In this document: positions 1 through 39,050 of the stretch, in pieces
Numbering within the stretch: position 1 is the first letter of the stretch
Layout: every line of letters starts with the position of its first letter
IMG/VR virus record: IMGVR_UViG_2778261162_000007
From: a virus
Taxonomy: Duplodnaviria > Heunggongvirae > Uroviricota > Caudoviricetes
Reading direction: 5' to 3' (one strand)
Length of the DNA: 47,425 nucleotides
The notes under the pieces: model-generated
Told to the model about the DNA's origin: nothing
Seen by the model: only the letters and a program-made list of their open reading frames with translations
Databases searched by the model: none
Position numbers and translations under genes: made by a program

Positions 1-1236
1 CTACGATAACCGCGCATTCAACATGGCTATCTGTTCGTCGTTCATGTCATCAATCCACATACCGTAAATTTCATACACCATCTGCGCAGTTTCATGCCCC
101 ATTTGGCTGGCTATAAATGCCGGGTTCGCTCCTGCCGTCAACAGCCAGCAGGCAAAAGTATGCCGCGTATGGTACGGATTACGGCGGCGAATACCAGCAC
201 GTTTTACTGCTGCATTCCACCTTGCCCCCAAACTGCTTACCGAGTAATAAGGTTTCTGTTTTCCGTTACACACCCTTGGCATGAAAACAAAATGCAGTTT
301 TTGCTTTTCGGTTCTGCCGTACTCCCGATGATAAAAGGTGATTTCGCTTTTGCGATGATGCCCGGTCAGTTTGTATTGCTCCTTCAGTGCTTCAAGAGCA
401 GGCTGCAGTAATGTTACCGTCCGGATCCCGGCATTTGTTTTTGGGGGACCGAACATATCAAGTATCGTCAGGTTTCTTCTGACATTCACAATTCCCTTCT
501 CGAAATCCACATCCTCCCACGCCAGAGCTGCCAGTTCCCCGTGACGAAGCCCGGAGTAAACGGCAAATTTCCACAAGTTTTGGCTCTGTCCTTTTTCACT
601 TTCCATTAATGCATTGAATTCTGTTTTAGATAACGGGTCAGGCTTTATTCTGTTTCGCTGTAATTTTTTTACTCCTTCAAATGGTTTGGTTGATATAAAT
701 CCCGACTGATACGCAAAACGTAACAGCGAACAGAGCAGGGCGATATAGTTATCAACTGTGCGCACGGTTCTTCCTTTTTTGTTGGATCTTGGATTATCCA
801 GGTAAAGCGTTTCTCCATGCAGCAGTTCATTCCGGTAGTTTAAGATATCGCTATAACGAATATATGATATCGGGGTACTTTCACAAATTATTATTCTGAG
901 TGTTTTTAATTGTGATTTCGTTTTCTTCATTGTGTTTGTTGTTAACTCTGTCTCTTTAATTTTTGTCCAGATATCACAAAGCTCCCCGAACGTTTTTATG
1001 ACTCTCGTTGTCACCATTTTTGCCCCAGTGCTGGACTGGGGAAAACGTCTTAAATACTCAAATTCACCGGAGTTTATTTCATGAACTATCAGCGCTCTTA
1101 AATTTCCGGCCTTTTTAATATTACTGTTTGTAATCTCCCAGCCTTTTAATGTTTCCCGACATCGTTTTCCTCGAAACATGAACCAGATGCGAATGTTTCT
1201 ACCTCTAATCTCGACACCTGTTGGTAATTTAGACAT
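1..1236 (-). CDS. intR: Prophage integrase, tyrosine recombinase (Rac IntR-like)
   Basis: 411-aa minus-strand ORF; C-terminal region has tyrosine-recombinase-like R..H..R..Y context (HTRHTFACWLL...YEIYG); N-terminus MSKLPTGVEIRGRNIRIWF matches my recollection of Rac IntR; the window begins exactly at its stop codon. Confidence 0.88.
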   Translation of the reverse strand: MSKLPTGVEIRGRNIRIWFMFRGKRCRETLKGWEITNSNIKKAGNLRALIVHEINSGEFEYLRRFPQSSTGAKMVTTRVIKTFGELCDIWTKIKETELTTNTMKKTKSQLKTLRIIICESTPISYIRYSDILNYRNELLHGETLYLDNPRSNKKGRTVRTVDNYIALLCSLLRFAYQSGFISTKPFEGVKKLQRNRIKPDPLSKTEFNALMESEKGQSQNLWKFAVYSGLRHGELAALAWEDVDFEKGIVNVRRNLTILDMFGPPKTNAGIRTVTLLQPALEALKEQYKLTGHHRKSEITFYHREYGRTEKQKLHFVFMPRVCNGKQKPYYSVSSLGARWNAAVKRAGIRRRNPYHTRHTFACWLLTAGANPAFIASQMGHETAQMVYEIYGMWIDDMNDEQIAMLNARLS

Positions 1237-1237
1237 A

Positions 1238-1453
1238 TCATGAGTCTTTGATAAACTGATTTATCTTTGGATAGTTGTACCAGATAATCCCTCGTTTGCT
1301 GTCTGGCTTACCTAAAGGAGATACTCGTTTGAAGTGGAAGCCCTCCACCCAACAGTTCTGGCGATATGCTTCAATTTGTCTGGCCCCCAGACCAGTGCGA
1401 AGCATCAGGCCGTATTCAACCATCCACTCTTCATTAAAGATTACTTGTGCCAT
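1238..1453 (-). CDS. Excisionase-like protein (YdaQ/XisR-like)
   Basis: Small ORF immediately upstream of and co-oriented with integrase; internal start [11 protein letters not shown] chosen; position and size typical of Xis. Confidence 0.6.
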
Positions 1454-1552
1454 CGCATCACCTCTGGCAGGCGCCAATGTTAGACTGAAATTGACGCCTG
1501 ATGTTGATTATTTATAATCAGCTATGAAGTTTTAATTTGAATACAATGCAAT

Positions 1553-1741
1553 TCACGAGGACTGAAGTTTCTCGCAATTAAAATTTATCAGTTTTACTTT
1601 CTGCTCTCTGGAAACGCCTGCTTCTTTTTTACCTGAGAGCATTTTTTCGCATTCTGATTTCGTTAGTTTAGATTTTGAATATCTTGTCCAGTTAGTAGGA
1701 GTGCCACCTTCCTTTTCAATTGTAGCGGTAATTTTATACAT
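1553..1741 (-). CDS. YdaC-like small prophage protein
   Basis: Start MYKITATIEKEGG preceded by GGAGG Shine-Dalgarno; the ORF track offers a longer form to 1813. Confidence 0.45.
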   Translation of the reverse strand: MYKITATIEKEGGTPTNWTRYSKSKLTKSECEKMLSGKKEAGVSREQKVKLINFNCEKLQSS

Positions 1742-1940
1742 GAACGCCTCCATTAATATTTTCAGTGGTTCGTTTATTCCATCTTTCGAGCGCTTCTTTT
1801 TCACTTCCACCATAGCCAGTTCGGGATTCGCATCCGTTGCATTTTGCCCGGTAATATCCTGAAATGTCTTTCACCGTTACTGATGGACAACCACAAAACG
1901 GACATGGTTTAACATCGTCATATCTCAAAGTTTTTGTCAT
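1734..1940 (-). CDS. ralR: Lar/RalR-family restriction-alleviation protein (Cys-rich)
   Basis: MTKTLRYDDVKPCPFCGCPSVTVK...CNGCESRTG, a four-Cys zinc-ribbon-like motif; position between ydaC-like and recT as in Rac. Confidence 0.65.
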   Translation of the reverse strand: MTKTLRYDDVKPCPFCGCPSVTVKDISGYYRAKCNGCESRTGYGGSEKEALERWNKRTTENINGGVHV

Positions 1941-1984
1941 AAAAACTATCTCACGTTGGCGGTGCATTACACCGCCGGGCTGGA

Positions 1985-2818
1985 TTATTCTTCTGGATTA
2001 TCGATTACACTGTATTCCCCGGCTATAACCGATATGTCGTCTGGATTAATTGTTTCCACCTCTTTTCCATCCATCGATACTGCACGCTGGATTTCAATAG
2101 ATACCGGCAGATACTTGAACAGTTTTCGTATCACTGTCTTTTTGGCCATGTCTTCAAAGTGTTCATCCCAGATGGACGACGCCCCTTTTGACGCTGCGTT
2201 TTTTGCCGCCTTGCTGTGTGTGTCGCGAACTTTTTCTACCTGTTTGCGGGTCATGACTTCAAACTGCACTCCTCCGTCTTTCAGTTTTGCAACAGCATAG
2301 ACATGGGTTATAGGGGCATCTTCGTTTTCACCGGGACGATGAACCAGTTTTTCATCAAGGCCAAGTTCATAGCTGAATTCATCACATTCACGGACAACAC
2401 GAGCTGACAGACTGATGATTTGACCTGATCGACGGGCAAGGTCGATCATGCCGCGATAACCGATGATCAGCTGTACGTTCTTCTTACCGTTTTTTGCTTT
2501 TCCGTTGCCGAACGGTAGCAGATATGCATGACCGAGGGCGCTACCTGGCTCAAGTCCGAGCTGTGAACACTGTACGATGGCACCGATAAAACTCGTCGAG
2601 TCACAGTTTCTTAGTTCCGGTACTTTACGGATTTCTGTTGTAGCAATGCGGATCATGCGTTCCGCTGTCATGTGACGTGGCAGAGCTGCTGCCAGTTGCG
2701 CTTTCATTGCCGGGCTGTTAATCACGCACAGCACATCCTTATCGTTAACTGCTGCTGGTGCACGGTTTCCCTGAGTTTTTTGCAGATCGGCTTTTGCGAT
2801 AGGTGGTTGCTTAGTCAT
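1985..2818 (-). CDS. recT: RecT single-strand annealing recombinase
   Basis: [21 protein letters not shown]... recognised as RecT; start overlaps the recE stop region. Confidence 0.9.
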
Positions 2819-5462
2819 TTGCATACTCCTTAGCCCAGCGGGGCAGTGATAACGTCTTAATAGCTGGCCATTCATCGGTATTTAGGCAGTCAGCCAGGGT
2901 CCGCAGATTGCGGTGATATTCCTGCTGGCCTGCCAGTTTTGCTTCTTCGCCCATCATGAAAATCTCAACCGGATAACGTCCGCATTCAACAGTTGTGCTG
3001 GCAACCAGAAAAACGAAAGTTGGCTGCACACCAAACTGTGCTTCATAACCGTCACTGTAGAATGCATCCTGAACGTGATAGCGGTAGTCGTAATAAGCCG
3101 TTTTGAATCGTTGAATATCCGCTGTGGTTTTCACGTCCATGATCCAGTGAAATTCAGGAATAATTTTGTCCGGACGGCACCGACACAAAATTCCTGTTTC
3201 CGGATCTTCCCAGTAAATTGATGATTCAGCGTGTCCGGCGCTTTCAACAAGCCATTGCCCCAGCGGCAAAGCCATAACGCTTTGATACATGAGTTCAATT
3301 TTCCGGCCTTCTTCCGCAGTGATAACCGTTTTTCCTGTGCTTGCGCATTCCATCAGAAACGCTTTCTCTTCTTCTTTTCCGGCGTTTGTACGGCGGTTAA
3401 ATTCAGGTGCTACGATAAAGCGGTTACTGAATTCTTCCGGTTCAAGTACCCGGCAGTGGAAAGCGGTTCCTAAATCGAGCGTTTTTGTCTTTGTAGTGTC
3501 CACGGGGGCATTTTTACGCCACAAATACAGTGCCGGAGTATCAGCAATGTCATCGAGCTGAGACTTACTGACACCGGGACCCGCGTGGTAATTCTCATTC
3601 GAAATTCCGTAATAAATACCTGGCTCTATGTCTTCTACGATTACGGGATCTGCGACTTCGCCAGTTTCATCACTGCAATCGCGATGCGGATCGCTGCCAG
3701 CATTCTCATTGTGCGGATGTTCAGCGCCTTCCATTTCCTCCGGATCTTTTTCCTTAGCTTCAACCTGATTCTCTTCACCGAATGTTTCCTGGTATGTTGC
3801 GTCGCCCATCACCGCACCACAGTCAGGGCAGTTATCCCCGCCAGTCTGACCGCAGGCATTGCAGACTATTTCCGGTTCCTGTTGCACTACTGGCTCAGGT
3901 TGTTTCGCATCCGGGCTGATTTTTTCCGTTTCTGGCTGGTTCTGGTACACAGAATCGCGAGTCTGGATCCCCTTAACCCATTTCGGATCGTTCGGGTCGC
4001 TAATTCCGTCAACAAATTCACCACGTGATGCAGCAAGCAATTTATCGGCATCGACAGGATTTTTTGATGGAATGTTTTTCCGGGCTTCCTGGAGTTCTGC
4101 CCGCAGTTCCTGATATTTCGCATCAACAGAATTTACCTGTGACTGAGCATCCAGCGGCTGCGTGTTCTGATGATGTTCAGTTGCATTCGGTTCCACTGTT
4201 TCAGCCGTTGCCTGTTCATCTGCCATTGCGCCAGATGGTTGTGGTTTTTCTTCATCGTCCTGTTTTCCTTCTTCTGTTACTCGCTGCGGCATCGGGGCCG
4301 AGGAGCGACCGCAGGCAATATCCACGATTTCCGGATCAGGGTTGGCATGATCGGTTTCAGTCAGTACTTTGTTCAGATATTCAGTGACGTGTGCGGGGAT
4401 GACCTCGATCCCAATTGGTGCTTCTTTTACGGACGCAACCACGATGGCGCGGGAATAATCCAGCCCACCAGGCATGGTGATGAATTTGTCGCGGAAAACA
4501 GAAAAGGGTGGTTTATTTTCAGCGATAATTTCCTCGACACGTTTAGCGTGTGCCGGATGAAGGTTATAAATGTCCACGTCCATTGAACGAGCCAGTACGC
4601 CAGTGGCTACGTCGCGCGCCAGTGACGTCAGATCGTGAACGAAACCTTCGCCGCGATCGGTGAGGTTCCCGCCGCCAGCATTAGCGCCGGAAGCCGTGCG
4701 CGTGATGCGTGAAACACGATTTCCTTTTCGCCATTCTTTTGTCAGAAGACCGCGATCAATGTGTTCGGTATCCAGCCAGGCTGAAATGAAATTCTTAAAT
4801 TCATAGGGCTGATGTTTTTTCGTGATAGAGAACACTGCCTTAATTGCATCAGTCAGGCGGAGCAGGGCGGCATTATCCAGAGTTGTCGGTTCTGCCATGC
4901 TGCGTATGGCCAACAGCAGATTCTGGACATAGCTGTTTTCCTGATCCATCTCAAGAGCAGTAATGTGTTTGCGTTGTTCACGGGTGGCATGATGCAGGTA
5001 TTTCCGATCCCCGGCTGCATACGTAAAAATGTGCAGAAGACGCTGTGTGAACCGCAAAGTGGCTACAGAGACTTCGCAATCCTGGCAATCCTCGTGGGCG
5101 TCTGCCTGCGCGTTTTCTTCCTGGCCTCCCGCCAGTTCTTTGGTTTCTTGAGCATTATCCTGGTGGTGAACGTCGTCTGGCGCTGCTCCCGGTTTTAGTT
5201 CCCAGGTCATTGAGTCTTTGCTGAGTTGATAGCGTTCACTCCAGGTAAAATCGATCTCACCTTCAGGGGGAAGGTCATTAACGACAGGAAAATTCGTGGC
5301 AACAGGTTTAAAATAGCTGCTCAGTTTTTTACCTGACTTAACGAGCAGGTAGTCCAGAGTGGCACAGGTCGATTCAAAATCGTCGCTTGCCCACAGGACG
5401 ACGTCAGGTTCACCGGATGATTTTTTCGCTTTCCGTAACAGGAAGAGTGGTTTTGTGCTCAT
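2811..5462 (-). CDS. recE: RecE exonuclease VIII (YqaJ-like C-terminal nuclease)
   Basis: 883-aa ORF directly upstream of recT; long acidic linker and C-terminal exonuclease region typical of RecE. Confidence 0.88.
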
Positions 5463-5563
5463 TGTTTTTTAACCTCAACTCAGATTAAAATTCGTTTTGT
5501 TCAGTGAATGATCTTGCCGGATACACACTGTTCATAGCCTGCGTATGGCGCAGGCTATTTCTT

Positions 5564-5839
5564 TCAGATTTCACCGCCTAATTTCATTGCAATCAGAGTT
5601 GCCAGAAATCCGGCTTTTTTTTCTGCGGGCAGATTCTTTCCGATGTGAACCAGGCACATTTTTGTGACACCTTCATCAAGTGTTTTTACGTTGCCTGATG
5701 GACCGTCGATATCAACCACAGTGAATGGGGTTTCTTTATTTTCTGTTTTAATCACGTAGCCAATACGCTTTCCTTCCAGATTAACCTCGTGAACAATGTC
5801 ATCGGTAGTTACAACAGTGGCTTCATAATTGGTAATCAT
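5564..5839 (-). CDS. racC: RacC-like protein
   Basis: MITNYEATVVTTDDIVHEVNLEGKRIGYVIK...; AAGGAG RBS upstream of the internal start. Confidence 0.6.
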   Translation of the reverse strand: MITNYEATVVTTDDIVHEVNLEGKRIGYVIKTENKETPFTVVDIDGPSGNVKTLDEGVTKMCLVHIGKNLPAEKKAGFLATLIAMKLGGEI

Positions 5840-5913
5840 GTTTTTCTCCTTAATTAAGGTTGAGCGAATCCCTGCCATTGCTGGCATAAATTCAGTTTCG
5901 AATAGTCAGTTAA

Positions 5914-6084
5914 TTAAAGTTCGTGTGCCATCTGGTCTTTTTCGGCACAACTTTCACTACAATATTTTTTCATTTCCGTCGTTGGGATAACTCCACGCAT
6001 GAAATGAAGTGGTCTTTTAATACTTTTGCTTTCTTCAATTTCTTTATTGCAAAGGTGGTAAGCACATTTTATTTTCTTAGTCAT
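5914..6084 (-). CDS. ydaE: YdaE-like Cys-rich small protein
   Basis: Hand-translated minus-strand [21 protein letters not shown]...KYCSESCAEKDQMAHEL, about 56 aa and absent from the ORF track (below its size cutoff); paired Cys motifs. Confidence 0.5.
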   Translation of the reverse strand: MTKKIKCAYHLCNKEIEESKSIKRPLHFMRGVIPTTEMKKYCSESCAEKDQMAHEL

Positions 6085-6305
6085 CACCATGACTCCGCCT
6101 TTACAGGTAAACCATCACGACCGAGGAAGACTTTAATCATGCAGTCAGTAATGCATGTTTTTGTAGTCAGGTTACGAATATAAAGTTTTCGCTTTTTAAT
6201 ATTGTTTGCCGAGGCAATATATGTCCGGCCTTCATGAAGAATATAGTCACCAGGAGTCACACACTGACGTGGTATTTCATCAGTTCCGAAGTGATGTGCA
6301 ATCAT
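6084..6305 (-). CDS. kilR: Kil-family cell-division (FtsZ) inhibitor, KilR-like
   Basis: [46 protein letters not shown]...; GGAGA RBS; location upstream of recE as in Rac. Confidence 0.7.
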
Positions 6306-6725
6306 AATTATCTCCATTTTTACAAATGAACTTTGTTGATGCGGTGCCTAGTGCCTCCAGGTGACTGCAACCAGTTAACAATTACAGTCGGCTTTCCCAC
6401 CCAAACCAATAAGGACTAACATGACTTTTAACTGTGCCGCGTGCGCTTAGCCGCATTCACCGCATCACAAAATTCACTTTAAAAAGGGCGGACATCAGTC
6501 GAACTTCAAGAAAAAACTGATGCCGCCAAGACTACACACAGCAGTGTTGTTATCCACAACCGGAGGCGCACTCCCACCATTTAAATTTAACAGACAAGAC
6601 CGACTCTTTATGGATATCGGAAATGCGACTTCGTGTTGTGCCCGGTTTTATTTCACCACCTCCGGGCTTTGGTGGTTTCTGCTATACCCCTACAGCGAGA
6701 ATATTGAATTAATCCAAATAATGGA

Positions 6726-6878
6726 TTAGCAAGTATTTCTGGCAAGCCAGCGACGTGCGCCCGTTTCAGTTTTGAATGTCTTGCTTTTGGTATACGTCAT
6801 GGCGGTGAACGTTCCATCCTGGTTGGGGAACACGCCGCACACCAGGGATTCGTTATTGCCGAGGTCGATTTTTTGCAT
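6726..6878 (-). CDS. YdaF-like small protein
   Basis: Hand-translated ORF MQKIDLGNNESLVCGVFPNQDGTFTAMTYTK..., about 50 aa. Confidence 0.4.
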   Translation of the reverse strand: MQKIDLGNNESLVCGVFPNQDGTFTAMTYTKSKTFKTETGARRWLARNTC

Positions 6879-6888
6879 TTTTCGCACC

Positions 6889-7023
6889 TCACATTTTGTT
6901 GTTGCGGATAGAGGCTTCTGCCTGCCAGAGATCCCAGTCGTTGCTGCGTAGAGCCTGTACAGCCTGGCTGTAAGTGATATCGCAACAATCCATCAAATAC
7001 TGAACTACTTCGTAATGCACCAT
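6889..7023 (-). CDS. YdaG-like small protein
   Basis: Hand-translated ORF MVHYEVVQYLMDCCDITYSQAVQALRSNDWDLWQAEASIRNNKM, 44 aa. Confidence 0.4.
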   Translation of the reverse strand: MVHYEVVQYLMDCCDITYSQAVQALRSNDWDLWQAEASIRNNKM

Positions 7024-7215
7024 CTTATCTCTCCCCTTAACGCCGGGTGGCGGAACTAACTGCTGCACTGCAAAATTTGAATCCCGCCGTCATGTTCATA
7101 CGCCTCGGGCTGGCTACTTAACCCCTTACCACTGCCTGGTAACTCGAAGTATTGCCCGGCGTTCTGTGGGGCGGGGTGGGTGGTATGCTGGAACTATAGG
7201 TAATGCCTAATTGAT

Positions 7216-7237
7216 TGTCAATAGGCTATGCCTAATG
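7216..7237. promoter_or_regulatory. 22-bp sequence TGTCAATAGGCTATGCCTAATG, left copy of a perfect inverted repeat flanking racR
   Basis: Exact reverse-complement match to 7859..7880; lies downstream of the racR stop. Confidence 0.5.
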
Positions 7238-7330
7238 TTTTGGGTGTAACCTAATAGGTGATGGCGACAGGAGAAAGTGATGGGGGGTTAAATAACGGAA
7301 TCCAGGAGTTTTCCGTCAGACCATATAAGT

Positions 7331-7807
7331 TTAAGTTCCAGTTTTTGTGATGTTCTGGCTTTTCCGTTCAGATTCTAGAGCTTTCAGATACTTACCCACT
7401 TTCATTTCCATCGCTGCTATGTAGGCGCGAACATCGTGGTCAACCCAATCTGGTTCTGTAGCATTTCCAGATAACAGGAAAGCTACAATCGCTCTTATTT
7501 CATCAGAGGCTGCTTGATAAAGGTTGTTTATATCTAAAAGTTCACTTTTTGTATCTGAATTGGTGGGGGTTGGTATGGGGTATTCGTTAAGCCCCCAATG
7601 CTCTGGACCAACAACATCAGAAAAGAAACGCCATAATTCTGGAAGTTTATCTTTACTTATGGAGCCTTTCTTAATCCAGTCATAAATTGATGGTGGTTGG
7701 ATTTTGAAGTGGCGTGCGACCTCCGCCTTTGATTTGACGGATCCCGATGCGATTTTTTTGTTAATGGCCTGCTCTATCGCTCGGCCTAAGTCTTTACCAC
7801 TAAGCAT
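7331..7807 (-). CDS. racR: Prophage repressor RacR (HTH)
   Basis: 158-aa ORF MLSGKDLGRAIEQAINKKIASGSVKSKAEVARHFKIQPPSIYDWIKKG... with HTH; divergent from a cro-like gene. Confidence 0.85.
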   Translation of the reverse strand: MLSGKDLGRAIEQAINKKIASGSVKSKAEVARHFKIQPPSIYDWIKKGSISKDKLPELWRFFSDVVGPEHWGLNEYPIPTPTNSDTKSELLDINNLYQAASDEIRAIVAFLLSGNATEPDWVDHDVRAYIAAMEMKVGKYLKALESERKSQNITKTGT

Positions 7808-7930
7808 TGCTTAATATTCTCCTATGCTCATTGCATTAGGCAATCCCTACCTTTATCGCATTAGGCATAGCCTATTGACATTTATGTTAGGCGTCGCCTA
7901 ATATTTCTGTGTGTTTTTGGAGTTCATTCG
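7808..7930. promoter_or_regulatory. Divergent racR/ydaS promoter-operator region
   Basis: Contains the right copy of the 22-bp inverted repeat (7859..7880), a 15-bp palindrome TTAGGCGTCGCCTAA (7887..7901), repeated ATTAGGC half-sites, and TTGACA (7875..7880) followed about 18 bp later by TAATAT. Confidence 0.6.
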
Positions 7931-8227
7931 ATGAAAAAAGAGAACTATTCATTCAAGCAAGCTTGTGCTGTTGTCGGTGGGCAATCAGCAATGGCTAGGC
8001 TTTTAGGTGTATCACCTCCAAGCGTAAATCAATGGATCAAAGGGGTACGTCAATTGCCTGCCGAGAGATGTCCAGCAATTGAACGAGCAACAAGAGGTGA
8101 GGTTCTGTGCGAAGAGCTTCGTCCTGATATTGACTGGTCATATTTACGACGTTCGGCATGTTGTTCGCAGAATATGTCAGTGAAGCAACTAAATGACAGT
8201 AACAAATCCTCATTTGATCATACCTGA
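7931..8227 (+). CDS. ydaS: Cro-like HTH regulator YdaS
   Basis: MKKENYSFKQACAVVGGQSAMARLLGVSPPSVNQWIKG... HTH; divergent from the repressor. Confidence 0.85.
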   Translation: MKKENYSFKQACAVVGGQSAMARLLGVSPPSVNQWIKGVRQLPAERCPAIERATRGEVLCEELRPDIDWSYLRRSACCSQNMSVKQLNDSNKSSFDHT

Positions 8228-8249
8228 AACATCAAGAGGCAAATGATTC

Positions 8250-8672
8250 ATGAAAATCAAGCATGAGCACATCGAATCAGTGTTGTTTGCCCTGGCAGCC
8301 GAAAAAGGGCAGGCATGGGTAGCCAATGCAATTACTGAAGAATATCTGCGCCAGGGGGGCGGCGAATTGCCCCTGGTTCCAGGCAAGGACTGGAACAATC
8401 AGCAGAATATCTATCACCGTTGGTTGAAAGGTGAAACGAAAACGCAAAGAGAAAAAATTCAGAAGCTGATCCCAGCAATTCTGGCAATCCTTCCGCGCGA
8501 GTTGCGTCACCGACTCTGCATCTTCGATACCCTGGAACGCCGTGCATTACTGGCGGCGCAGGAAGCGTTAAGTACGGCAATTGATGCGCATGATGATGCA
8601 GTCCAGGCCGTTTACCGGAAAGCGCATTTCAGCGGCGGTGGTTCGTCCGGCGATTCTGTTGTTGTTCATTAA
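8250..8672 (+). CDS. ydaT: YdaT-like protein (putative toxin/CII-like partner of YdaS)
   Basis: 140-aa ORF MKIKHEHIESVLFALAAEKGQAWVANAITEEY... immediately downstream of ydaS. Confidence 0.8.
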   Translation: MKIKHEHIESVLFALAAEKGQAWVANAITEEYLRQGGGELPLVPGKDWNNQQNIYHRWLKGETKTQREKIQKLIPAILAILPRELRHRLCIFDTLERRALLAAQEALSTAIDAHDDAVQAVYRKAHFSGGGSSGDSVVVH

Positions 8673-8684
8673 GGTGATGTGGTG

Positions 8685-10891: not shown

Positions 10892-10924
10892 GTTGATAAG
10901 TAATTTTACCGGGAGCAAATTTTA

Positions 10925-11686
10925 ATGGAGACTGTTTTTGACGCACTGAAAGCAATGGGAAAAGCCACGTCGGTAGAACTCGCTGCGCGACTTGATATCA
11001 GTCGTGAAGAGGTACTGAACGAGCTGTGGGAACTGAAAAAGGCTGGTTTCGTTGATAAAAGCGTATACACCTGGCGTGTGGCTGATAACAACGTTCAGCA
11101 GGAACAGCCAGAGCAGGCAGAACTGCCGGAAGAAACCACCACAGCAACAGTAGCGAAAATCTCAGAGTGCGATTTAACCGCGACGATTGAACAACGCGGA
11201 CCACAAACGGCTGATGAGCTGGCTACATTGTTTGGTACCACATCACGCAAAGTGGCTTCAACGCTGGCAATGGCAATCAGCAAAGGTCGTCTGATTCGCG
11301 TAAATCAGGGCGGTAAATTTCGTTACTGCATACCGGGCGATAATTTACCAGCAGAGCCGAAAGCAGCATCGGTAGCGGAAACTGATGGTAAGGCTTTTCC
11401 TCAGCCCGCAGGTGTTGCGTTACCAGTACAGGAGGCTGCAACACAGGAAGAAATTAAAACAGATACTGTAGCGGACATTGTGCAGTCGTTGCCATCGTTT
11501 ACCGAAACGCGGGCGGATGATTTGATTTTGCCATCGCTGCATCTGGCAAACCGCAAACTGCGTCGGGCGAAAAGCCATGTCCAGAAGTGGGAGCGTGTCT
11601 GCGCCGCGCTGCGGGAGTTGAACAAGCACCGGGATATTGTTCGCCAGATTACTGATTCTTCCCGCTGTGTTGTATCGGAAAAGTGA
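10925..11686 (+). CDS. Hypothetical protein with two winged-helix-like segments
   Basis: 253-aa [33 protein letters not shown] and [32 protein letters not shown] look HTH-like. Confidence 0.4.
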
Positions 11687-12908: not shown

Positions 12909-13682
12909 TTAGAACTGTTCATTGCCATCGAGGTTAGGTAGCATAATTTTTTCAATCAAGGCGAGAGCCTTTTTGTCCCGGTCAGCGAAGTATTTCGGGG
13001 CATATTGCGGCAACCAAATATTGTTAAAATGTTCTTTGAAATCTGCTAAATATTCATTTGGGTACAGCCTTGCAGGGTATACGCGACCATCGGGATATTC
13101 ATGGTCATAGGTAGGGAATGTTTTGGGTTCTACGTTTCTATTATCTCTTAACCATTGTGAAAATACTCTTCCTTGTGAAATGTCAGGAACCATTTTTTCT
13201 GGGAGTGTGTACCCTGCTTGTTCAAGAGGTGCAACCAAGTTGAATGTCAGTTCATTAAGAATAGAAAAGTGCGTGTGAGGAATTCTACTACGATTAACCA
13301 TGTACCGTTTTAAATGTACAGGCATTTCTGCTGTAGTTCTTTCCCCTGACATCCATTCACGAACCCATCTTGAAACCTGGACTGCAAATTTGGGCGATAG
13401 CCACTGCGCTAGATTAATAGCGATGTCAGGATGCACCCATGTCCCTTGGTTTTCAGGTCTTCCACCTTTAAATGATTGAATTAACTCCGATATGGGAATT
13501 CCCATATCGCGTGATAATTCGTCAAAAAACTCTTGAGTAGTTTTGAGTCTAGTGTAATCAGAGAGCAGTTTGCCCGCAGTTCTACACATTGATGTGGCGT
13601 TTATGTAACCATCTTTGGCACGTAAATGTATTATTTCGCCGTCAATTTCACGAGAAATCAAAGATAATTGAAAGGATGTCAT
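12909..13682 (-). CDS. KilA-N domain protein
   Basis: N-terminal region ...IHLRAKDGYINATSMCRTAGKLL...GGRPENQGTWVHPDIAINLAQWLSPKFAVQVSRWV matches the KilA-N pattern. Confidence 0.7.
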   Translation of the reverse strand: MTSFQLSLISREIDGEIIHLRAKDGYINATSMCRTAGKLLSDYTRLKTTQEFFDELSRDMGIPISELIQSFKGGRPENQGTWVHPDIAINLAQWLSPKFAVQVSRWVREWMSGERTTAEMPVHLKRYMVNRSRIPHTHFSILNELTFNLVAPLEQAGYTLPEKMVPDISQGRVFSQWLRDNRNVEPKTFPTYDHEYPDGRVYPARLYPNEYLADFKEHFNNIWLPQYAPKYFADRDKKALALIEKIMLPNLDGNEQF

Positions 13683-14204
13683 TGAAAATTCCTCAAGTTG
13701 GAGAGTTCTGGAACATTAAGGCGAGGTGGCCGTAATGCACCATCTGTAATCTTTTGATACTGACGTAATCGGGCCTGATGTGCAACGCCTTGCAAGTATG
13801 TAACTCATTGAAAACGATCATTTTTATCTATTGACATCAAATGGCAAACTGTCATTGTGCGGCTATGGCAAGTGGCAAATGCTTATAAATCATATGGATA
13901 TAAATAGTACAGAAAGAGTTGTTTTCTCTAGGATATGAGTATACGCCCAATGCTGATTGGTTGAATTTTGTTCTTGTTTTAAAGGGTAAGAGTTTAAAGT
14001 GTTGGCAGTGATGTATTGGATAGTTAGAATTGCTGTGGGTGCTTGAGGCTATCTGCCTCGGGCATGATCACCAAAGGTAGATAGAGAAAAGCCCCAGTTA
14101 ACATTACGCGTCCTGCAAGACGTTTAACATTAATCTGAGGCCATATCTATGCGACACATAGAGATTAGCCTCTTACGGACCGAAAGGTCAAGGAGAAGCA
14201 GGCT

Positions 14205-14360
14205 ATGAAGCAGCAAAAGGCGATGTTAATCGCCCTGATCGTCATCTGTTTAACCGTCATAGTGACGGCACTGGTAACGAGGAAAGACCTCTGTGAGGTA
14301 CGAATCCGAACCGGGCAGACGGAGGTCGCTGTCTTCACAGCTTACGAACCTGAGGAGTAA
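14205..14360 (+). CDS. Hok/Gef-family type I toxin (51 aa)
   Basis: MKQQKAMLIALIVICLTVIVTALVTRKDLCEVRIRTGQTEVAVFTAYEPEE closely resembles Gef/Hok; AGGAGAAG RBS; sits in a 1.1-kb AT-rich non-coding island. Confidence 0.85.
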   Translation: MKQQKAMLIALIVICLTVIVTALVTRKDLCEVRIRTGQTEVAVFTAYEPEE

Positions 14361-18455: not shown

Positions 18456-18674
18456 ATGAGCAGAAAACACTGGACACACAGAATGCCGCGAACGGCGGCG
18501 AAATGGGCACTGGTAGCGATACTGGTGCCTTTTTTCCTGGTGGGATGCGTTAGCCTGGATAAGGCGCGCCAGCTTTTCGATACGGCTTCTCAGGTCTGCG
18601 AAATTGTTGACGGTGTTCGGCAGTGTCTGCAGAACTTATCGCCTGTAAGAGCAGAATATTTTGCTGAAAAATGA
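18456..18674 (+). CDS. Putative spanin-like lipoprotein
   Basis: Signal peptide with LVGC lipobox (WALVAILVPFFLVGCVS); location after the endolysin. Confidence 0.45.
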   Translation: MSRKHWTHRMPRTAAKWALVAILVPFFLVGCVSLDKARQLFDTASQVCEIVDGVRQCLQNLSPVRAEYFAEK

Positions 18675-19109: not shown

Positions 19110-19232
19110 CAGGCATTACAGCAGCCCTTCAGTGTGAGGGGCTGCGATAATGTCAAAGCTCGTTATCAGCACCCGCCGCGCACCCAGCGCACTGGCCGAT
19201 AGCGGGCTTTTTTATTCATAAAGCGAGGCTGT

Positions 19233-20021
19233 ATGAGCGAGAAATTGAAGATCGTCTATCGCCCGTTGCAAAAACTGTCTCCGTATGCGCACAACGCCAG
19301 GACACACAGCCCTGAGCAGGTGGCACAACTGGTAGAAAGCATTAAGCAATTCGGCTGGACCAATCCGGTGCTGATTGACGAAAAGGGCGAAATTATTGCT
19401 GGTCACGGTCGCGTGATGGCGGCTGAGGTGCTCAAAATGGATTCTGTTCCGGTCATTGTTCTGTCTGGCCTGACGGATGATCAGAAAAAGGCGTACCGCC
19501 TGGCAGATAATCGCCTGCCGCTCAACGCTGGCTGGGATGAAGAACTGTTACGGGTGGAACTGTCGGAGCTAATCAATGCTGATTTTGATATCTCCCTGAC
19601 AGGATTCAGCCCAACAGAAATTGATGAACTGTTGATGGAAGTTTTGCCAGGTACCGGAAATGAGGAGGAGCAGTATACGACGAAAATTGATACGCCTGTT
19701 TATGAGCCGTCGGGCGATAAACCGGATATCAGTGAACTGTACGACGATACGAAAACTCAGGAGCTGATCAGCCGGATACGTTCGGCGTCCCTTGAGCCTG
19801 ATATCGAAAAATTCCTCCTGTGCGCGGCAGAACGCCACACGGTGTTTAATTTCAGCAGAATTGCGGATTATTACGCTCACGCCCCCGCTGAAATTCAGCG
19901 CCTTTTTGAGGAGTCGGCGCTGGTGATCATTGATTATCAGCAGGCTATTGAAAATGGATTTGTCCGGATGACGCAGCACATGGTGGAGAGCATGCATGGC
20001 GGGGAGGAGGAATATGCGTGA
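19233..20021 (+). CDS. ParB-like nuclease domain protein
   Basis: N-terminal ...PNARTHSPEQVAQLVESIKQFGWTNPVLIDEKGEIIAGHGRVMAA..., a ParB N-terminal (ParB/Srx) pattern. Confidence 0.7.
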   Translation: MSEKLKIVYRPLQKLSPYAHNARTHSPEQVAQLVESIKQFGWTNPVLIDEKGEIIAGHGRVMAAEVLKMDSVPVIVLSGLTDDQKKAYRLADNRLPLNAGWDEELLRVELSELINADFDISLTGFSPTEIDELLMEVLPGTGNEEEQYTTKIDTPVYEPSGDKPDISELYDDTKTQELISRIRSASLEPDIEKFLLCAAERHTVFNFSRIADYYAHAPAEIQRLFEESALVIIDYQQAIENGFVRMTQHMVESMHGGEEEYA

Positions 20022-23560: not shown

Positions 23561-25000
23561 TTGATGGCAGAGATCGAGATTACTGGCGGCCTCGGTTCAG
23601 CACTGATGCATATTCTTGAGGCTGAAGAAATTCAGCCGGGAACCGACATTGGCTATGAATTGTGTAAGCAGCTGTGGCAATTCCATCCTCTGGGCGGAAA
23701 ACTTGTCGAAAAACCCATACTTATGGCGATGTGTAAGCCGCGTCAGTACAACGTGGAGACAGACCCTGACGAGCGGGTTGTGCGGCGTTTCCAGGAGGTA
23801 TGGGAACGTATGAAGGTTAACGAGAAGATTAAAAATCTGTTTTTTCTGTCTCGTTGCTACGGTGCCGCAGCGATCGGCGTGGGCACCGACAGTGTTCCAT
23901 GTCGTGAGCCGCTTCCGACATTCGGACTGACAGAAGATGATGTGTATATCAACGCGTGGGACCCGTTGAACGCTTCTGGTTCGATGGTGACTGACCAGAA
24001 CCCAAACAGCCCGTTTTTCCAGGAAGCCAATAAAAAGCTGAAGATTGGCGGAAAAGACTGGCATCCGTCACGCACACTGAAAATTTTCAATGGCACACCG
24101 ATTTATCTGGAGTTTCAGAGTTCATCGTTCGGATTCACCGGGCGAAGCGTGTTTCAGCGCGTTCTTTATTCCCTGAAATCCTATATCAATACGATGGAGG
24201 CGAATGATCTCGTCAGCCAGAAGGCAGGCGTGCTGGTGGCTAAAGTTGTGCAGTATGGTTCGAAACTTGACGGGATCATGGCTGCCGCCACGGGACGAAA
24301 AAGGGAAAATGTCAAAGAGGCAAAAAATAAAGGTGTGCTTAGTATCGGGAAGGATGAGGACGTTACCTCGCTGAATTTACAAAACATCGATGGCGCGCTA
24401 AATGCCGCCCGCGACAACATTATTTCCGATATTGCATCAGGTAGCGATGTTCCCGCGATTCTCATCAAGGAGGAGGCTTTCTCGAATGGTTTCGGTGAAG
24501 GAACCGAGGACTCGAAAGCCATCAGCCAGTATATCGATGGTGTACGCCAGCAGATTGAACCTGTGATGGATTATTTCGAACGCCTGGTGCAGTACATCGC
24601 CTGGAACGAGGAATTTTATCAGTCGCTGAAAAATGATTACCCGGACATCATAACCGAGGACTATAAAACCACGTTTTACCAGTGGCGGCGCGAGTTTACC
24701 GCGACGTGGCAGGAGCTGGTGGAGGAGTCGCCGGACAAACGCCGGGAAAGCGACAGTAAAGTGATTCAACAGGCGATAGCACTTTTCTCTGCCGTGTCGC
24801 TACAGGTTGATCCTGAAAACCGTGCCGCCGTCACTGAATGGCTGGCAAGCCTTGTTAATGCCACGCAGACCTATGGCGAAGCTCCACTCATCATTGATGT
24901 GGACGCCCTGGCGAATTATGAACCACCGAAGCAGGAGACGCCTGATGGCAATTTCCAGCCGGGCGGGGAGGAAGAAGAAACGGATCAGGACGCTGTATGA
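23561..25000 (+). CDS. Portal protein
   Basis: 479-aa ORF directly after the large terminase; acidic C-terminus. Confidence 0.75.
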   Translation: MMAEIEITGGLGSALMHILEAEEIQPGTDIGYELCKQLWQFHPLGGKLVEKPILMAMCKPRQYNVETDPDERVVRRFQEVWERMKVNEKIKNLFFLSRCYGAAAIGVGTDSVPCREPLPTFGLTEDDVYINAWDPLNASGSMVTDQNPNSPFFQEANKKLKIGGKDWHPSRTLKIFNGTPIYLEFQSSSFGFTGRSVFQRVLYSLKSYINTMEANDLVSQKAGVLVAKVVQYGSKLDGIMAAATGRKRENVKEAKNKGVLSIGKDEDVTSLNLQNIDGALNAARDNIISDIASGSDVPAILIKEEAFSNGFGEGTEDSKAISQYIDGVRQQIEPVMDYFERLVQYIAWNEEFYQSLKNDYPDIITEDYKTTFYQWRREFTATWQELVEESPDKRRESDSKVIQQAIALFSAVSLQVDPENRAAVTEWLASLVNATQTYGEAPLIIDVDALANYEPPKQETPDGNFQPGGEEEETDQDAV

Positions 25001-38901: not shown

Positions 38902-39050
38902 ATCACAGTTTTATGATAAAACTTTTACCTTGGTTTGGAGTGCTGTAGAGAGATATTTTAGGGGGGCGAGTAATTTTCTAAGCTGGAGCATATTGACATA
39001 TATTATTTCGGATTTGCAAAATACATATTGTTACCATGGAGGAGACAAGC

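Follow-up and report, generated by a model that had tools for sequence, protein, structure and literature searches.

The racR-ydaS-ydaT region as the probable immunity switch of a full-length Rac-type prophage

The racR-ydaS-ydaT region is very probably what decides between lysis and lysogeny in a Rac-type lambdoid prophage, an immunity switch that works like the cI/cro/cII region of lambda. It lies in a window of 47,425 nucleotides, that is the whole stretch of viral DNA analysed, and the prophage is a full-length one integrated at ttcA. In fact the module itself is already known: at least eight papers have dissected its K-12 alleles, and full-length Rac-like prophages that are active have been described before, so the annotation is correct but ordinary and not a discovery. 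Beyond this annotation the finding matters little, since the genes and control sites are essentially K-12 alleles. Its value lies in the corrections, namely that the proteins are regulators and not toxins, that mitomycin C is unsuitable and that the late region differs from that of K-12 Rac; besides, it yields two incidental predictions of cis elements that could be tested at little cost, a left operator/promoter set and a YdaT site preceding xis-int.

In the circuit we propose, RacR binds TAGGC-N3-GCCTA operators overlapping the strong rightward promoter PydaST and very probably also a pair of operators in mirror-image arrangement that covers a leftward PL-like promoter. Both early operons would in this way be silenced, the rightward one with ydaS-ydaT-replication and the leftward one with ydaG-ydaF-kilR-recET-ralR-xis-int. 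YdaS serves as a Cro-like counter-regulator, and the CII-like YdaT tetramer, sitting on the YdaT-box at its own start codon, activates a reverse PRE-like promoter inside ydaS and thereby boosts racR.

The three genes and their control sites

Identity and integrity of the genes and sites (Table 1) are read here from the sequence, and their biochemical roles are taken from the literature. The NCBIfam equivalog NF049929 for RacR, with a curated cut-off of 200 bits, matches residues 1-144 of the 158 of RacR at 245 bits; in the PDB RacR is without a sequence relative. For YdaS the Pfam models YdaS_toxin PF15943 (GA 30) and P22_Cro PF14549 (GA 30.2) give 107.7 and 36.8 bits, and HTH_3 gives 25.3 bits, also above GA; as expected of its family, ydaS opens the rightward operon and is divergent from the repressor gene. 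YdaT, a CII-like tetramer of POU type, reaches 43.7 bits with Pfam YdaT_toxin PF06254 (GA 21) and matches the PDB entries 3c4r (2.8e-8) and 8bt1, the CP-933P YdaT (1.8e-7), over the full length; compared with the residues in PMC11879457, its translation keeps the DNA-reading H56, R57 and W58 as well as L107 and A110 of the helix. The intergenic region between racR and the divergent ydaS and ydaT measures 123 bp. Ungapped identity to K-12 MG1655 is 157/158 (99.4%) for RacR, 98/98 (100%) for YdaS and 138/140 (98.6%) for YdaT, no frameshift or premature stop occurs in the three reading frames, and RefSeq has the same genes annotated in other E. coli genomes with DNA 99-100% identical. The preliminary description, which took the module as intact and the repressor gene as transcribed away from a Cro-like HTH gene and its partner, is borne out by these stop-free, nearly K-12-identical frames, by the gene layout and by the Pfam scores of YdaS.

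Table 1. Coordinates of the genes and of the observed and predicted control sites in the window
Feature	Position	Strand	Basis
racR, CI-like prophage repressor, 158 aa	7331..7807	-	ORF, NCBIfam, K-12 match
ydaS, Cro-like HTH regulator, 98 aa	7931..8227	+	ORF, Pfam, K-12 match
ydaT, CII-like tetrameric transcription factor, 140 aa	8250..8672	+	ORF, Pfam, PDB, K-12 match
Right-hand RacR operators, TAGGC-N3-GCCTA palindromes	7837-7849, 7862-7874, 7888-7900		motif scan, <=1 mismatch
Operator O3 TAAGCATTGCTTA, overlapping racR start codon	7801..7813		2-mismatch match; identical to K-12 sequence in PMC9638921
PydaST (PR analogue), TTGACA-18-TAATAT	7875..7904	+	promoter scan, 10/12
YdaT-box ATGATTCATGAAAATCAA, spanning ydaT start codon; PRE-like activation site	8243..8260		exact match to footprinted K-12 site (PMC11879457)
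PracR4 (PRE analogue) -35 hexamer TTGACG, inside ydaS	8048..8053	-	hexamer as published
Second YdaT-box-like repeat TTGATT-N6-AATCAG, candidate P_I analogue	1504..1521		motif scan, <=1 mismatch
OL/PL-like element (predicted)	7193..7256	-	promoter scan, operator scan
Leftward promoter TTGACA-17-TATAGT	7221->7193	-	promoter scan, 11/12
Left RacR-type operators	7197-7209, 7222-7234; weak third near 7244-7256
Leftward early operon, first genes	6087..7023	-	full-length matches to A17 annotation
ydaG-like	6892-7023	-	A17 full-length match
ydaF	6729-6878	-	A17 full-length match
kilR	6087-6305	-	A17 full-length match
xisR	1241-1453	-	71-aa full-length match, 100%
intR	1-1236	-	411-aa full-length match, 99.3%

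At up to one mismatch the RacR operator motif occurs at five sites in the 47 kb, all of them flanking racR, where the mean by chance is 0.73 and five sites were reached in 0 of 100 shuffles; at two mismatches the motif is uninformative (12 observed against 13.3 expected), and significance is claimed only for the set with at most one. Three sites of that set, together with O3, stand between racR and ydaS, which is where the cognate operators of the RacR family belong. The consensus (T/A)TAGGC-N3-GCCTA(T/A) and its footprints have been published for K-12 (PMC9638921), and in comparison with K-12 the half-sites of the right-hand operators are conserved and the substitutions are confined to the spacers. 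The hexamers of PydaST are also those of the K-12 promoter mapped by experiment (PMC11879457), and for identical sequences of K-12 footprints, reporter assays and RNA-seq exist (PMC9638921, PMC11014345, PMC11879457, PMC6765115). As for YdaT, its cognate inverted repeat is present as an exact 18-nt match, of which none is expected by chance.

The left flank of racR presents a second set of sites. A perfect inverted copy, 22 nt long, of the right operator plus the -35 hexamer is found there (7216-7237 against 7859-7880), and the whole left operator/promoter set is identical in K-12 and A17. The mirror-image sets at 7193-7256 and 7837-7904 thus form OR-like and OL-like clusters over outward early promoters, as is the case for lambda-type immunity. 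Prophages with other immunity types carry their own matched repeats on both flanks of the repressor, and the homology to them stops at about 7186 and restarts at 8243/8244, which defines a swappable imm cassette from the left operators through ydaS. We infer from the sequence that RacR controls this predicted OL/PL set. In K-12 the ydaG-ydaF-kilR genes are derepressed 40-70 fold upon a decrease of RacR (PMC6765115). Moreover, the second YdaT-box lies about 50 bp upstream of xisR-intR and is the sole other site in the window with at most one mismatch; its half-sites are invariant and its spacer variable among K-12, A17, 666R9 and pPE4, and it may be a P_I analogue. A fuller lambda-like circuit, with a previously unreported OL/PL for direct repression of kilR-recET-xis-int by RacR, an equally unreported P_I site for YdaT, mosaic joints of the immunity types exactly at the two YdaT boxes and the PL start, a still active myovirus and its induction by a non-SOS cue, is conceivable, and taken as a whole we put it forward with some reserve.

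Completeness of the prophage and its relatives

It had also been claimed that the structural genes are intact, and indeed the genes from terminase through baseplate are full length and stop-free against the two references A17 and pPE4; unlike K-12 Rac, the surrounding prophage is full length. The same two references give full-length, stop-free counterparts for int, xis, replication, Q and holins/endolysin as well as for terminase, portal, capsid, sheath, tube, tape measure and baseplate. Of the A17 protein-coding genes 60 have a counterpart in the window, and every one of these is complete and uninterrupted by stops; comparison with the phage record pPE4 gives 23 colinear genes, beginning with terL and ending with the first of the tail-fibre assembly genes, all of full length and stop-free. 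PHROGs confirm terL, terS, portal, head morphogenesis, sheath, baseplate wedge subunit, fibre and Q; the baseplate wedge subunit of PHROGs is the gene labelled baseplate J/gp47 in RefSeq. The gene set of an intact temperate phage is present with two exceptions: compared with pPE4, a deletion has left only a remnant of the second tail-fibre/assembly locus (44210-45024), and an i-spanin/o-spanin pair was not recognised in the window, where only a 63-aa lipobox protein follows the endolysin. The window starts at the stop codon of intR and ends about 86 bp short of the attR core; a search for the att cores in the window found neither, and both are present at the related A17 locus. Close to the right end of the window GGGGCAA repeats occur, and as candidate Int arm sites they belong to a motif that is not enriched window-wide.

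With this gene content the prophage retains every module of the lytic cycle, and loss of RacR should start phage development. An alternative that we consider unlikely is that the prophage is defective despite its intact frames, being domesticated for its cargo and regulators and at most able to excise. One degraded tail-fibre locus would suit such an element, but loss of the side tail fibres is tolerated, as in lambda PaPa. The unrecognised spanin pair, the absence of an SOS link from the window and the cargo and defence genes (a BstA-like protein, a restriction-endonuclease-like moron, a YadA-like adhesin, and the RalR and Hok toxins) can also be counted for it, and decay is frequent among Rac-family elements (PMC5700373). 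However, neither frameshift nor stop is found in the essential-looking genes against two references, and prophages 99.5-99.9% identical over most of the length reside in unrelated strains, from otter and from cow dung. Moreover a deposited phage genome has the same structural module, with a gene order that is circularly permuted (tail fibres, then int), as expected of excised DNA, and KingRac is an active precedent. A prophage still capable of activity, that is of particle production, is plausible on these comparisons.

The late region also decides how this prophage is related to K-12 Rac. The two have in common the ttcA site, a left arm int-xis-ralR-recET-kilR-ydaF at 93-97% nucleotide identity, and in the module (racR b1356, ydaS b1357, ydaT b1358) the operators, PydaST, the YdaT-box and the left operator/promoter set. 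In K-12 Rac, however, nearly everything right of ydaT is lost or replaced: it has the replication genes ydaU/ydaV where the window has a DnaT-like/P-like pair, its late remnants are of siphovirus type (ynaA, lomR, stfR) where the window has a complete myovirus-type (contractile-tail) module, and it carries sieB and trkG, which the window does not. Since the late region is unrelated to the remnants in K-12, the prophage is related to K-12 Rac as a mosaic and is not its undecayed form. Other full-size Rac-like prophages, namely KingRac, Rac-SA53 and Sp10/CP-933R, are also located at ttcA. Rac-SA53 has both arms in common with the window at 93-94% identity and covers 51-73% of it. KingRac, likened here by its published description, forms tailed particles and was transferred in the mouse gut to K-12, which it lysogenised (PMC6731689); an active Rac-like phage is on record in KingRac (PMC6731689, PMC12251178), and Sp10/CP-933R (PMC4632033) is a further precedent.

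As in lambda, a repressor gene and a divergent cro-like gene share a multipartite operator, a second operator set (here predicted) covers a leftward early promoter, a cII-like activator gene right after cro drives a reverse promoter for the repressor (PMC11879457), and a possible activator site precedes int. On the other hand, RacR has no sequence similarity to CI, the YdaT-box is situated about 190 bp from PracR4 instead of straddling its -35, and an N or cIII homologue was not identified in the window. Moreover, whereas lambda Cro represses cI, reporter assays showed no repression of racR by the YdaS of K-12 (PMC9638921), which makes the lambda analogy imperfect. The PaaR2/YdaS/YdaT region of CP-933P in E. 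coli O157:H7 has the same architecture, with a YdaT (structure 8bt1) that recognises TTGATT-N6-AATCAA and a repressor without autocleavage motif that is unresponsive to mitomycin C (PMC8630535, PMC9986795). Its proteins are only about 26-31% identical to those of Rac, a paaA2-parE2 TA pair lies downstream of its repressor, and its YdaT, which is non-toxic, does not bind the intergenic region.

Induction

RacR does not carry the C-terminal S24 autocleavage domain of a lambda-type repressor, no Pfam match to Peptidase_S24 being found at E<=0.01. A single-sequence AlphaFold model, of low confidence (pLDDT 53.6), predicts it as all-helical; the Pfam scan, together with the small size and helical character of the protein, is the main ground for taking a cleavage domain to be absent. 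In the 47-kb window the LexA box CTGT-N8-ACAG has 0 matches, and neither CTG-N10-CAG with an AT-rich spacer nor 20-mers within six mismatches of the LexA consensus gave a convincing site. An SOS/anti-repressor route was rejected as these scans came up empty; likewise the KilA-N protein at 12909-13682 was rejected as an anti-repressor, being a BstA-type abortive-infection protein (PHROG 6287, 2.7e-89; PADLOC BstA, 3.2e-21). Without an S24 autopeptidase domain RacR has no direct RecA/SOS input, and since a LexA box is missing as well, a strong induction by mitomycin C is not to be expected. The statement that this prophage may still be inducible has thus to be divided: activity is plausible by the precedent of KingRac, and a strong response to mitomycin C is not expected. 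In fact excision of K-12 Rac and Sp10 is not inducible by mitomycin C (PMC4632033) and KingRac is only weakly induced (PMC6731689), and the drug is a poor inducer for testing this prophage. No induction signal is readable from the window sequence; with RacR apparently devoid of RecA-stimulated self-cleavage, unlike lambda CI, the natural trigger would probably be something other than the SOS response. The vB_EcoS-...R phage records were rejected as evidence of inducibility, for they are in-silico prophages from clinical isolates (bioRxiv 10.1101/2022.06.29.498070), and they have another immunity type and a siphovirus late region.

Regulators or toxins

That RacR represses a toxic ydaS-ydaT pair, as was stated beforehand, is upheld for RacR as the repressor; the toxin part is the view of 2017, since challenged (PMC5917428) and revised. 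YdaS is now regarded as a Cro analogue that triggers excision, and YdaT as an analogue of CII, activating a PRE-like promoter and, when over-expressed, exerting toxicity via rcsA (PMC11014345, PMC11879457, PMC8630535). Pfam and RefSeq mislead with the label "toxin", since YdaS and YdaT are Cro/CII-type regulators. Over-expressed YdaT would be toxic incidentally, by acting as a transcription factor on host rcsA, and not by a toxin-antitoxin function, and in a full-length prophage the loss of RacR would be lethal mainly via lytic development.

It is highly improbable that the three genes are instead a toxin-repressor (atypical toxin-antitoxin) addiction module that kills or arrests cells losing RacR, even though both proteins were called RacR-repressed toxins in the 2017 K-12 studies and in a 2026 preprint (PMC5700373, PMC5700377, 10.64898/2026.09.06.749655), Pfam names them YdaS_toxin and YdaT_toxin, and YdaT over-expression also kills a delta-rac strain (PMC11014345): YdaS exceeds the P22_Cro and HTH_3 thresholds and is non-toxic alone (PMC11014345), the CP-933P homologue of YdaT is non-toxic (PMC8630535), and YdaT is a DNA-binding tetramer, with the structure of a homologue solved, that activates specific promoters (PMC9986795, PMC11879457). 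Moreover the gene position and cis elements fit cro and cII, and ydaT is common to prophages with unrelated repressor/cro pairs, which is unexpected for a cognate toxin-repressor pair. As cited in PMC5917428, Christensen-Dalsgaard 2010 gives no evidence of toxin-antitoxin behaviour for YdaS/YdaT, nor does PMC8630535, and the action of YdaT is that of a transcription factor (PMC11879457). As true type I TA pairs the prophage element has RalR/RalA and hok/sok.

Genes and DNA sites of the racR/ydaS/ydaT switch

The preliminary description placed an intact racR/ydaS/ydaT module at 7331-8672, with the repressor gene divergent from the Cro-like gene and its partner, and our analysis confirmed both points by the open reading frames, the family scans and the near-identity to the K-12 proteins. 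The CI-like repressor RacR reaches 245 bits with the NCBIfam RacR equivalog (cut-off 200), the Cro-like HTH regulator YdaS 107.7 bits with Pfam YdaS_toxin while also passing the P22_Cro and HTH_3 thresholds, and the CII-like YdaT 43.7 bits with Pfam YdaT_toxin (GA 21); compared with E. coli K-12 MG1655, the identical residues number 157/158, 98/98 and 138/140, respectively, without gaps. YdaT moreover matches over its full length the CP-933P YdaT structure 8bt1 as well as 3c4r, and keeps H56, R57, W58, L107 and A110. Such modules are very common. Among 5426 genomes, 3400 match the 1.8-kb region at least in part and 551 cover at least 80% of it; in other complete E. coli genomes, the entire 1.8-kb query finds DNA of 98.5-100% identity in which RefSeq annotates racR/ydaS/ydaT.

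The 123-bp gap between racR and ydaS-ydaT holds the RacR operators, whose consensus, footprints and names (O1-O3) have been published earlier for K-12 (PMC9638921). Allowing at most one mismatch, the operator palindrome occurs at five sites in the 47-kb window, every one within 350 bp of racR, against a chance expectation of 0.73, and none of 100 shuffles reaches five. Intergenic substitutions relative to K-12 are confined to the operator spacers or the stretches between operators and leave the half-sites unaltered, therefore both the proteins and the DNA sites of the switch are intact.

Coordinates of the switch genes, their DNA sites and the type I toxin-antitoxin (TA) loci
Feature	Position	Strand	Details
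racR	7331-7807	-	158-aa ORF
ydaS	7931-8227	+	98-aa ORF
ydaT	8250-8672	+	140-aa ORF
RacR operators	7837-7849, 7862-7874, 7888-7900		TAGGC-N3-GCCTA palindromes, racR-ydaS intergenic region
Degenerate operator copy	7801-7813		overlaps racR ATG
PydaST (PR analogue)	7875-7904		strong promoter TTGACA-18-TAATAT; the mapped K-12 promoter (PMC11879457)
YdaT-box (YdaT binding site)	8243-8260		ATGATTCATGAAAATCAA; spans ydaT start codon; footprinted site, unchanged
PracR4 (reverse PRE-like promoter), -35	8048	-	TTGACG
Predicted OL/PL-like element	7193-7256		downstream of racR; promoter and RacR-type operators
Second YdaT-box-like inverted repeat	1504-1521		TTGATT-N6-AATCAG; ~50 bp upstream of xisR-intR (minus strand)
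ralR with RalA sRNA opposite	1557-1735	+	type I TA; Rfam 218 bits
hokD with sok	14037-14357	+	type I TA; sok 101 bits

A predicted OL/PL-like element and the immunity cassette

Directly downstream of racR, a leftward promoter TTGACA-17-TATAGT running from 7221 to 7193 agrees with the consensus at 11 of 12 positions, and it is accompanied by two RacR-type operators, one over its spacer and -10 (7197-7209) and the other abutting its -35 (7222-7234), which is the same geometry as that of O1/O2 at PydaST. Moreover, the 22 nt at 7216-7237 are a perfect inverted copy of 7859-7880, which holds a right-hand operator and -35, and the left segment is identical in K-12 and in the related prophage of E. 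coli strain A17. Judged by its sequence, this arrangement is the predicted signature of an OL/PL inside an imm cassette. The assignment is supported by two records with other immunity types, the in-silico prophage vB_EcoS-666R9 (666R9) and the phage vB_Apl-pPE4 (pPE4): their cassettes carry their own repeat on both flanks of the repressor (ATGTACTTT in 666R9, TCACATATCGTGA in pPE4), and their homology to the window ends at about 7186, about where transcription from a PL would begin, and picks up again at 8243/8244, namely the YdaT-box. These limits bound a swappable imm cassette of about 1.06 kb, which comprises the left operators, racR, the right operators and ydaS and leaves ydaT outside. 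An OL/PL here would account for the 40-70-fold derepression of ydaG, ydaF, kilR, ydaE and racC when RacR falls (PMC6765115; 2026 preprint 10.64898/2026.09.06.749655). No description of it was found in the Rac-switch literature searched, and it may be reported elsewhere.

The position of ydaT bears on a further statement of the preliminary description, namely that K-12 racR owes its essentiality to repression of a toxic ydaS-ydaT pair. Two papers from 2017 came to this conclusion (PMC5700373, PMC5700377), but it has since been challenged and revised, and the mechanistic reading of the preliminary description is outdated. From the genetic context, Jobling regarded YdaS as the Cro equivalent and YdaT as the CII equivalent. 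YdaS by itself is non-toxic but sets off Rac excision, and the source of toxicity is YdaT, which alters the expression of regulons normally under host RcsA (PMC11014345). YdaT is a DNA-binding tetramer that activates PracR4 via the YdaT-box, as CII does PRE, and also activates host rcsA (PMC11879457); in the CP-933P switch the YdaT homologue is non-toxic, and a TA role was explicitly rejected by the authors (PMC8630535). The structural matches and kept residues of YdaT agree with the Cro/CII-type view. Furthermore, ydaT and its box share ~92% nucleotide identity with prophages having unrelated repressor/cro pairs, which is how a cII-type gene that is no part of the immunity cassette behaves, rather than a cognate toxin. 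RalR/RalA and hok/sok are the genuine TA pairs of the prophage.

The repeat upstream of xisR-intR is the sole other site in the window within one mismatch of the YdaT-box, two sites being reached in 8 of 100 shuffles. K-12, A17, 666R9 and pPE4 all keep it, the half-sites being invariant and the spacer variable. By analogy with CII and P_I, this candidate site could link YdaT to the expression of int. The pPE4 homology starts exactly at this repeat.

Completeness of the prophage and relationship to K-12 Rac

The A17 prophage lies between ttcA and uspF with the Rac att core on its flanks, and judged from it, the window extends from the intR stop codon to a point ~86 bp before the attR core. The two are 99.5% identical over 5166-46798, while the recET segment (1985-5462, minus strand) carries a different allele. 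All 60 A17 protein-coding genes having a counterpart in the window have it full-length and stop-free; the RecT allele of A17 lacks one, since the recT of the window is of K-12 type and gave no tblastn match to A17 or pPE4 RecT. The 883-aa recE ORF of the window is intact, unlike the A17 copy with its internal stop. A second and more independent reference is pPE4 (PP818812), whose late region is ~95% identical, and 23 genes, terL through the first tail-fibre assembly gene, run colinear with it and are full length and stop-free. The PHROGs roles cover packaging and head (terminase small and large subunits, portal, head morphogenesis), tail (sheath, tape measure/transglycosylase, baseplate wedge subunit annotated by RefSeq as baseplate J/gp47, tail fibre) and a Q-like antiterminator. 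Compared with pPE4, the second fibre/assembly locus (44210-45024) is a deletion remnant, consisting of a 33-aa N-terminal stub, short fragments matching residues 233-287 of the 667-aa pPE4 fibre, and a DUF4376 ORF that is the surviving C-terminal two-thirds of the fibre assembly protein.

By sequence comparison, the prophage has the site, left arm and immunity in common with K-12 Rac, the cryptic prophage at ttcA, which matches the window at 1-8673, 10898-11374 and 19183-19486 only. The late remnants of K-12 Rac (ynaA, lomR, stfR) are part of a siphovirus-type module resembling the one in 666R9, whereas the late region here is a contractile-tail module, and the replication genes are DnaT-like and lambda-P-like instead of ydaU/ydaV; it is therefore a mosaic cousin of K-12 Rac rather than an undecayed form of it. 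Of 5426 complete genomes, 76 contain the myovirus-type late module at a coverage of at least 80%.

Inducibility and other loci

The racR/ydaS/ydaT annotation is correct, and the suggestion that the prophage may be inducible is reasonable but already has a published precedent, since a full-length Rac-like prophage has been shown to be active. KingRac, at ttcA, replaced the defective K-12 Rac in the mouse gut, made tailed particles and was only weakly induced by mitomycin C (PMC6731689), and has since been implicated in transduction (PMC12251178); Liu et al. reported that excision of K-12 Rac and Sp10 was not induced by mitomycin C (PMC4632033). For the present prophage, particle production is plausible and somewhat favoured. 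A Pfam scan found no Peptidase_S24 domain in RacR, and no LexA box able to control an anti-repressor was found in the window, both of which would account for a weak SOS response. The CP-933P repressor likewise has no cleavage motif and is unresponsive to mitomycin C (PMC8630535). RacR is predicted to be all-helical in a low-confidence model, and no relative was found in PDB. Since the repressor has no SOS input, a mitomycin C assay is poorly matched and is likely to be weak or negative whether or not the prophage is functional; the appropriate trigger is racR silencing or YdaS over-expression.

The sole KilA-N protein (12909-13682, minus strand) was rejected as an anti-repressor, being by a strong match a BstA-type abortive-infection protein (PHROG 6287, 2.7e-89; PADLOC BstA, 3.2e-21), so that the prophage carries an anti-phage defence gene in its early-right region. 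The M15 endolysin is followed by a 63-aa lipobox protein (18483-18674, plus strand; signal …FFLVGC), which could be an o-spanin-like lysis lipoprotein; neither a spanin pair nor an i-spanin partner for it was recognised, which is the second exception to completeness beside the fibre remnant. The gene at 23564-25000 (plus strand), named 'anti-CBASS protein Acb1 family protein' by RefSeq/PGAP, is the portal according to PHROGs (phrog_146, 1.2e-74) and its position after terL, so the Acb1 name looks like a misleading automated one. Among the baseplate genes, a RefSeq 'type I restriction endonuclease' (39036-40211, plus strand; 386-391 aa) without PADLOC match is inserted where pPE4 has an anti-repressor and another gene on the opposite strand, so that this spot is a moron hot-spot within the tail module. 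A cluster of three (A)ATGGGGCAA-like repeats occupies 47359-47404, immediately within the right end, and the motif shows no window-wide enrichment; they may be integrase arm-type sites, and in K-12 a comparable GGGGCAA pair adjoins attL. The right end also carries a YadA-like adhesin cargo gene (45695-47179, plus strand) in which a 78-bp (26-aa) unit is repeated in tandem about five times at 46421-46876; the copy number differs from that in A17 (480-aa alignment against its 454-aa protein).
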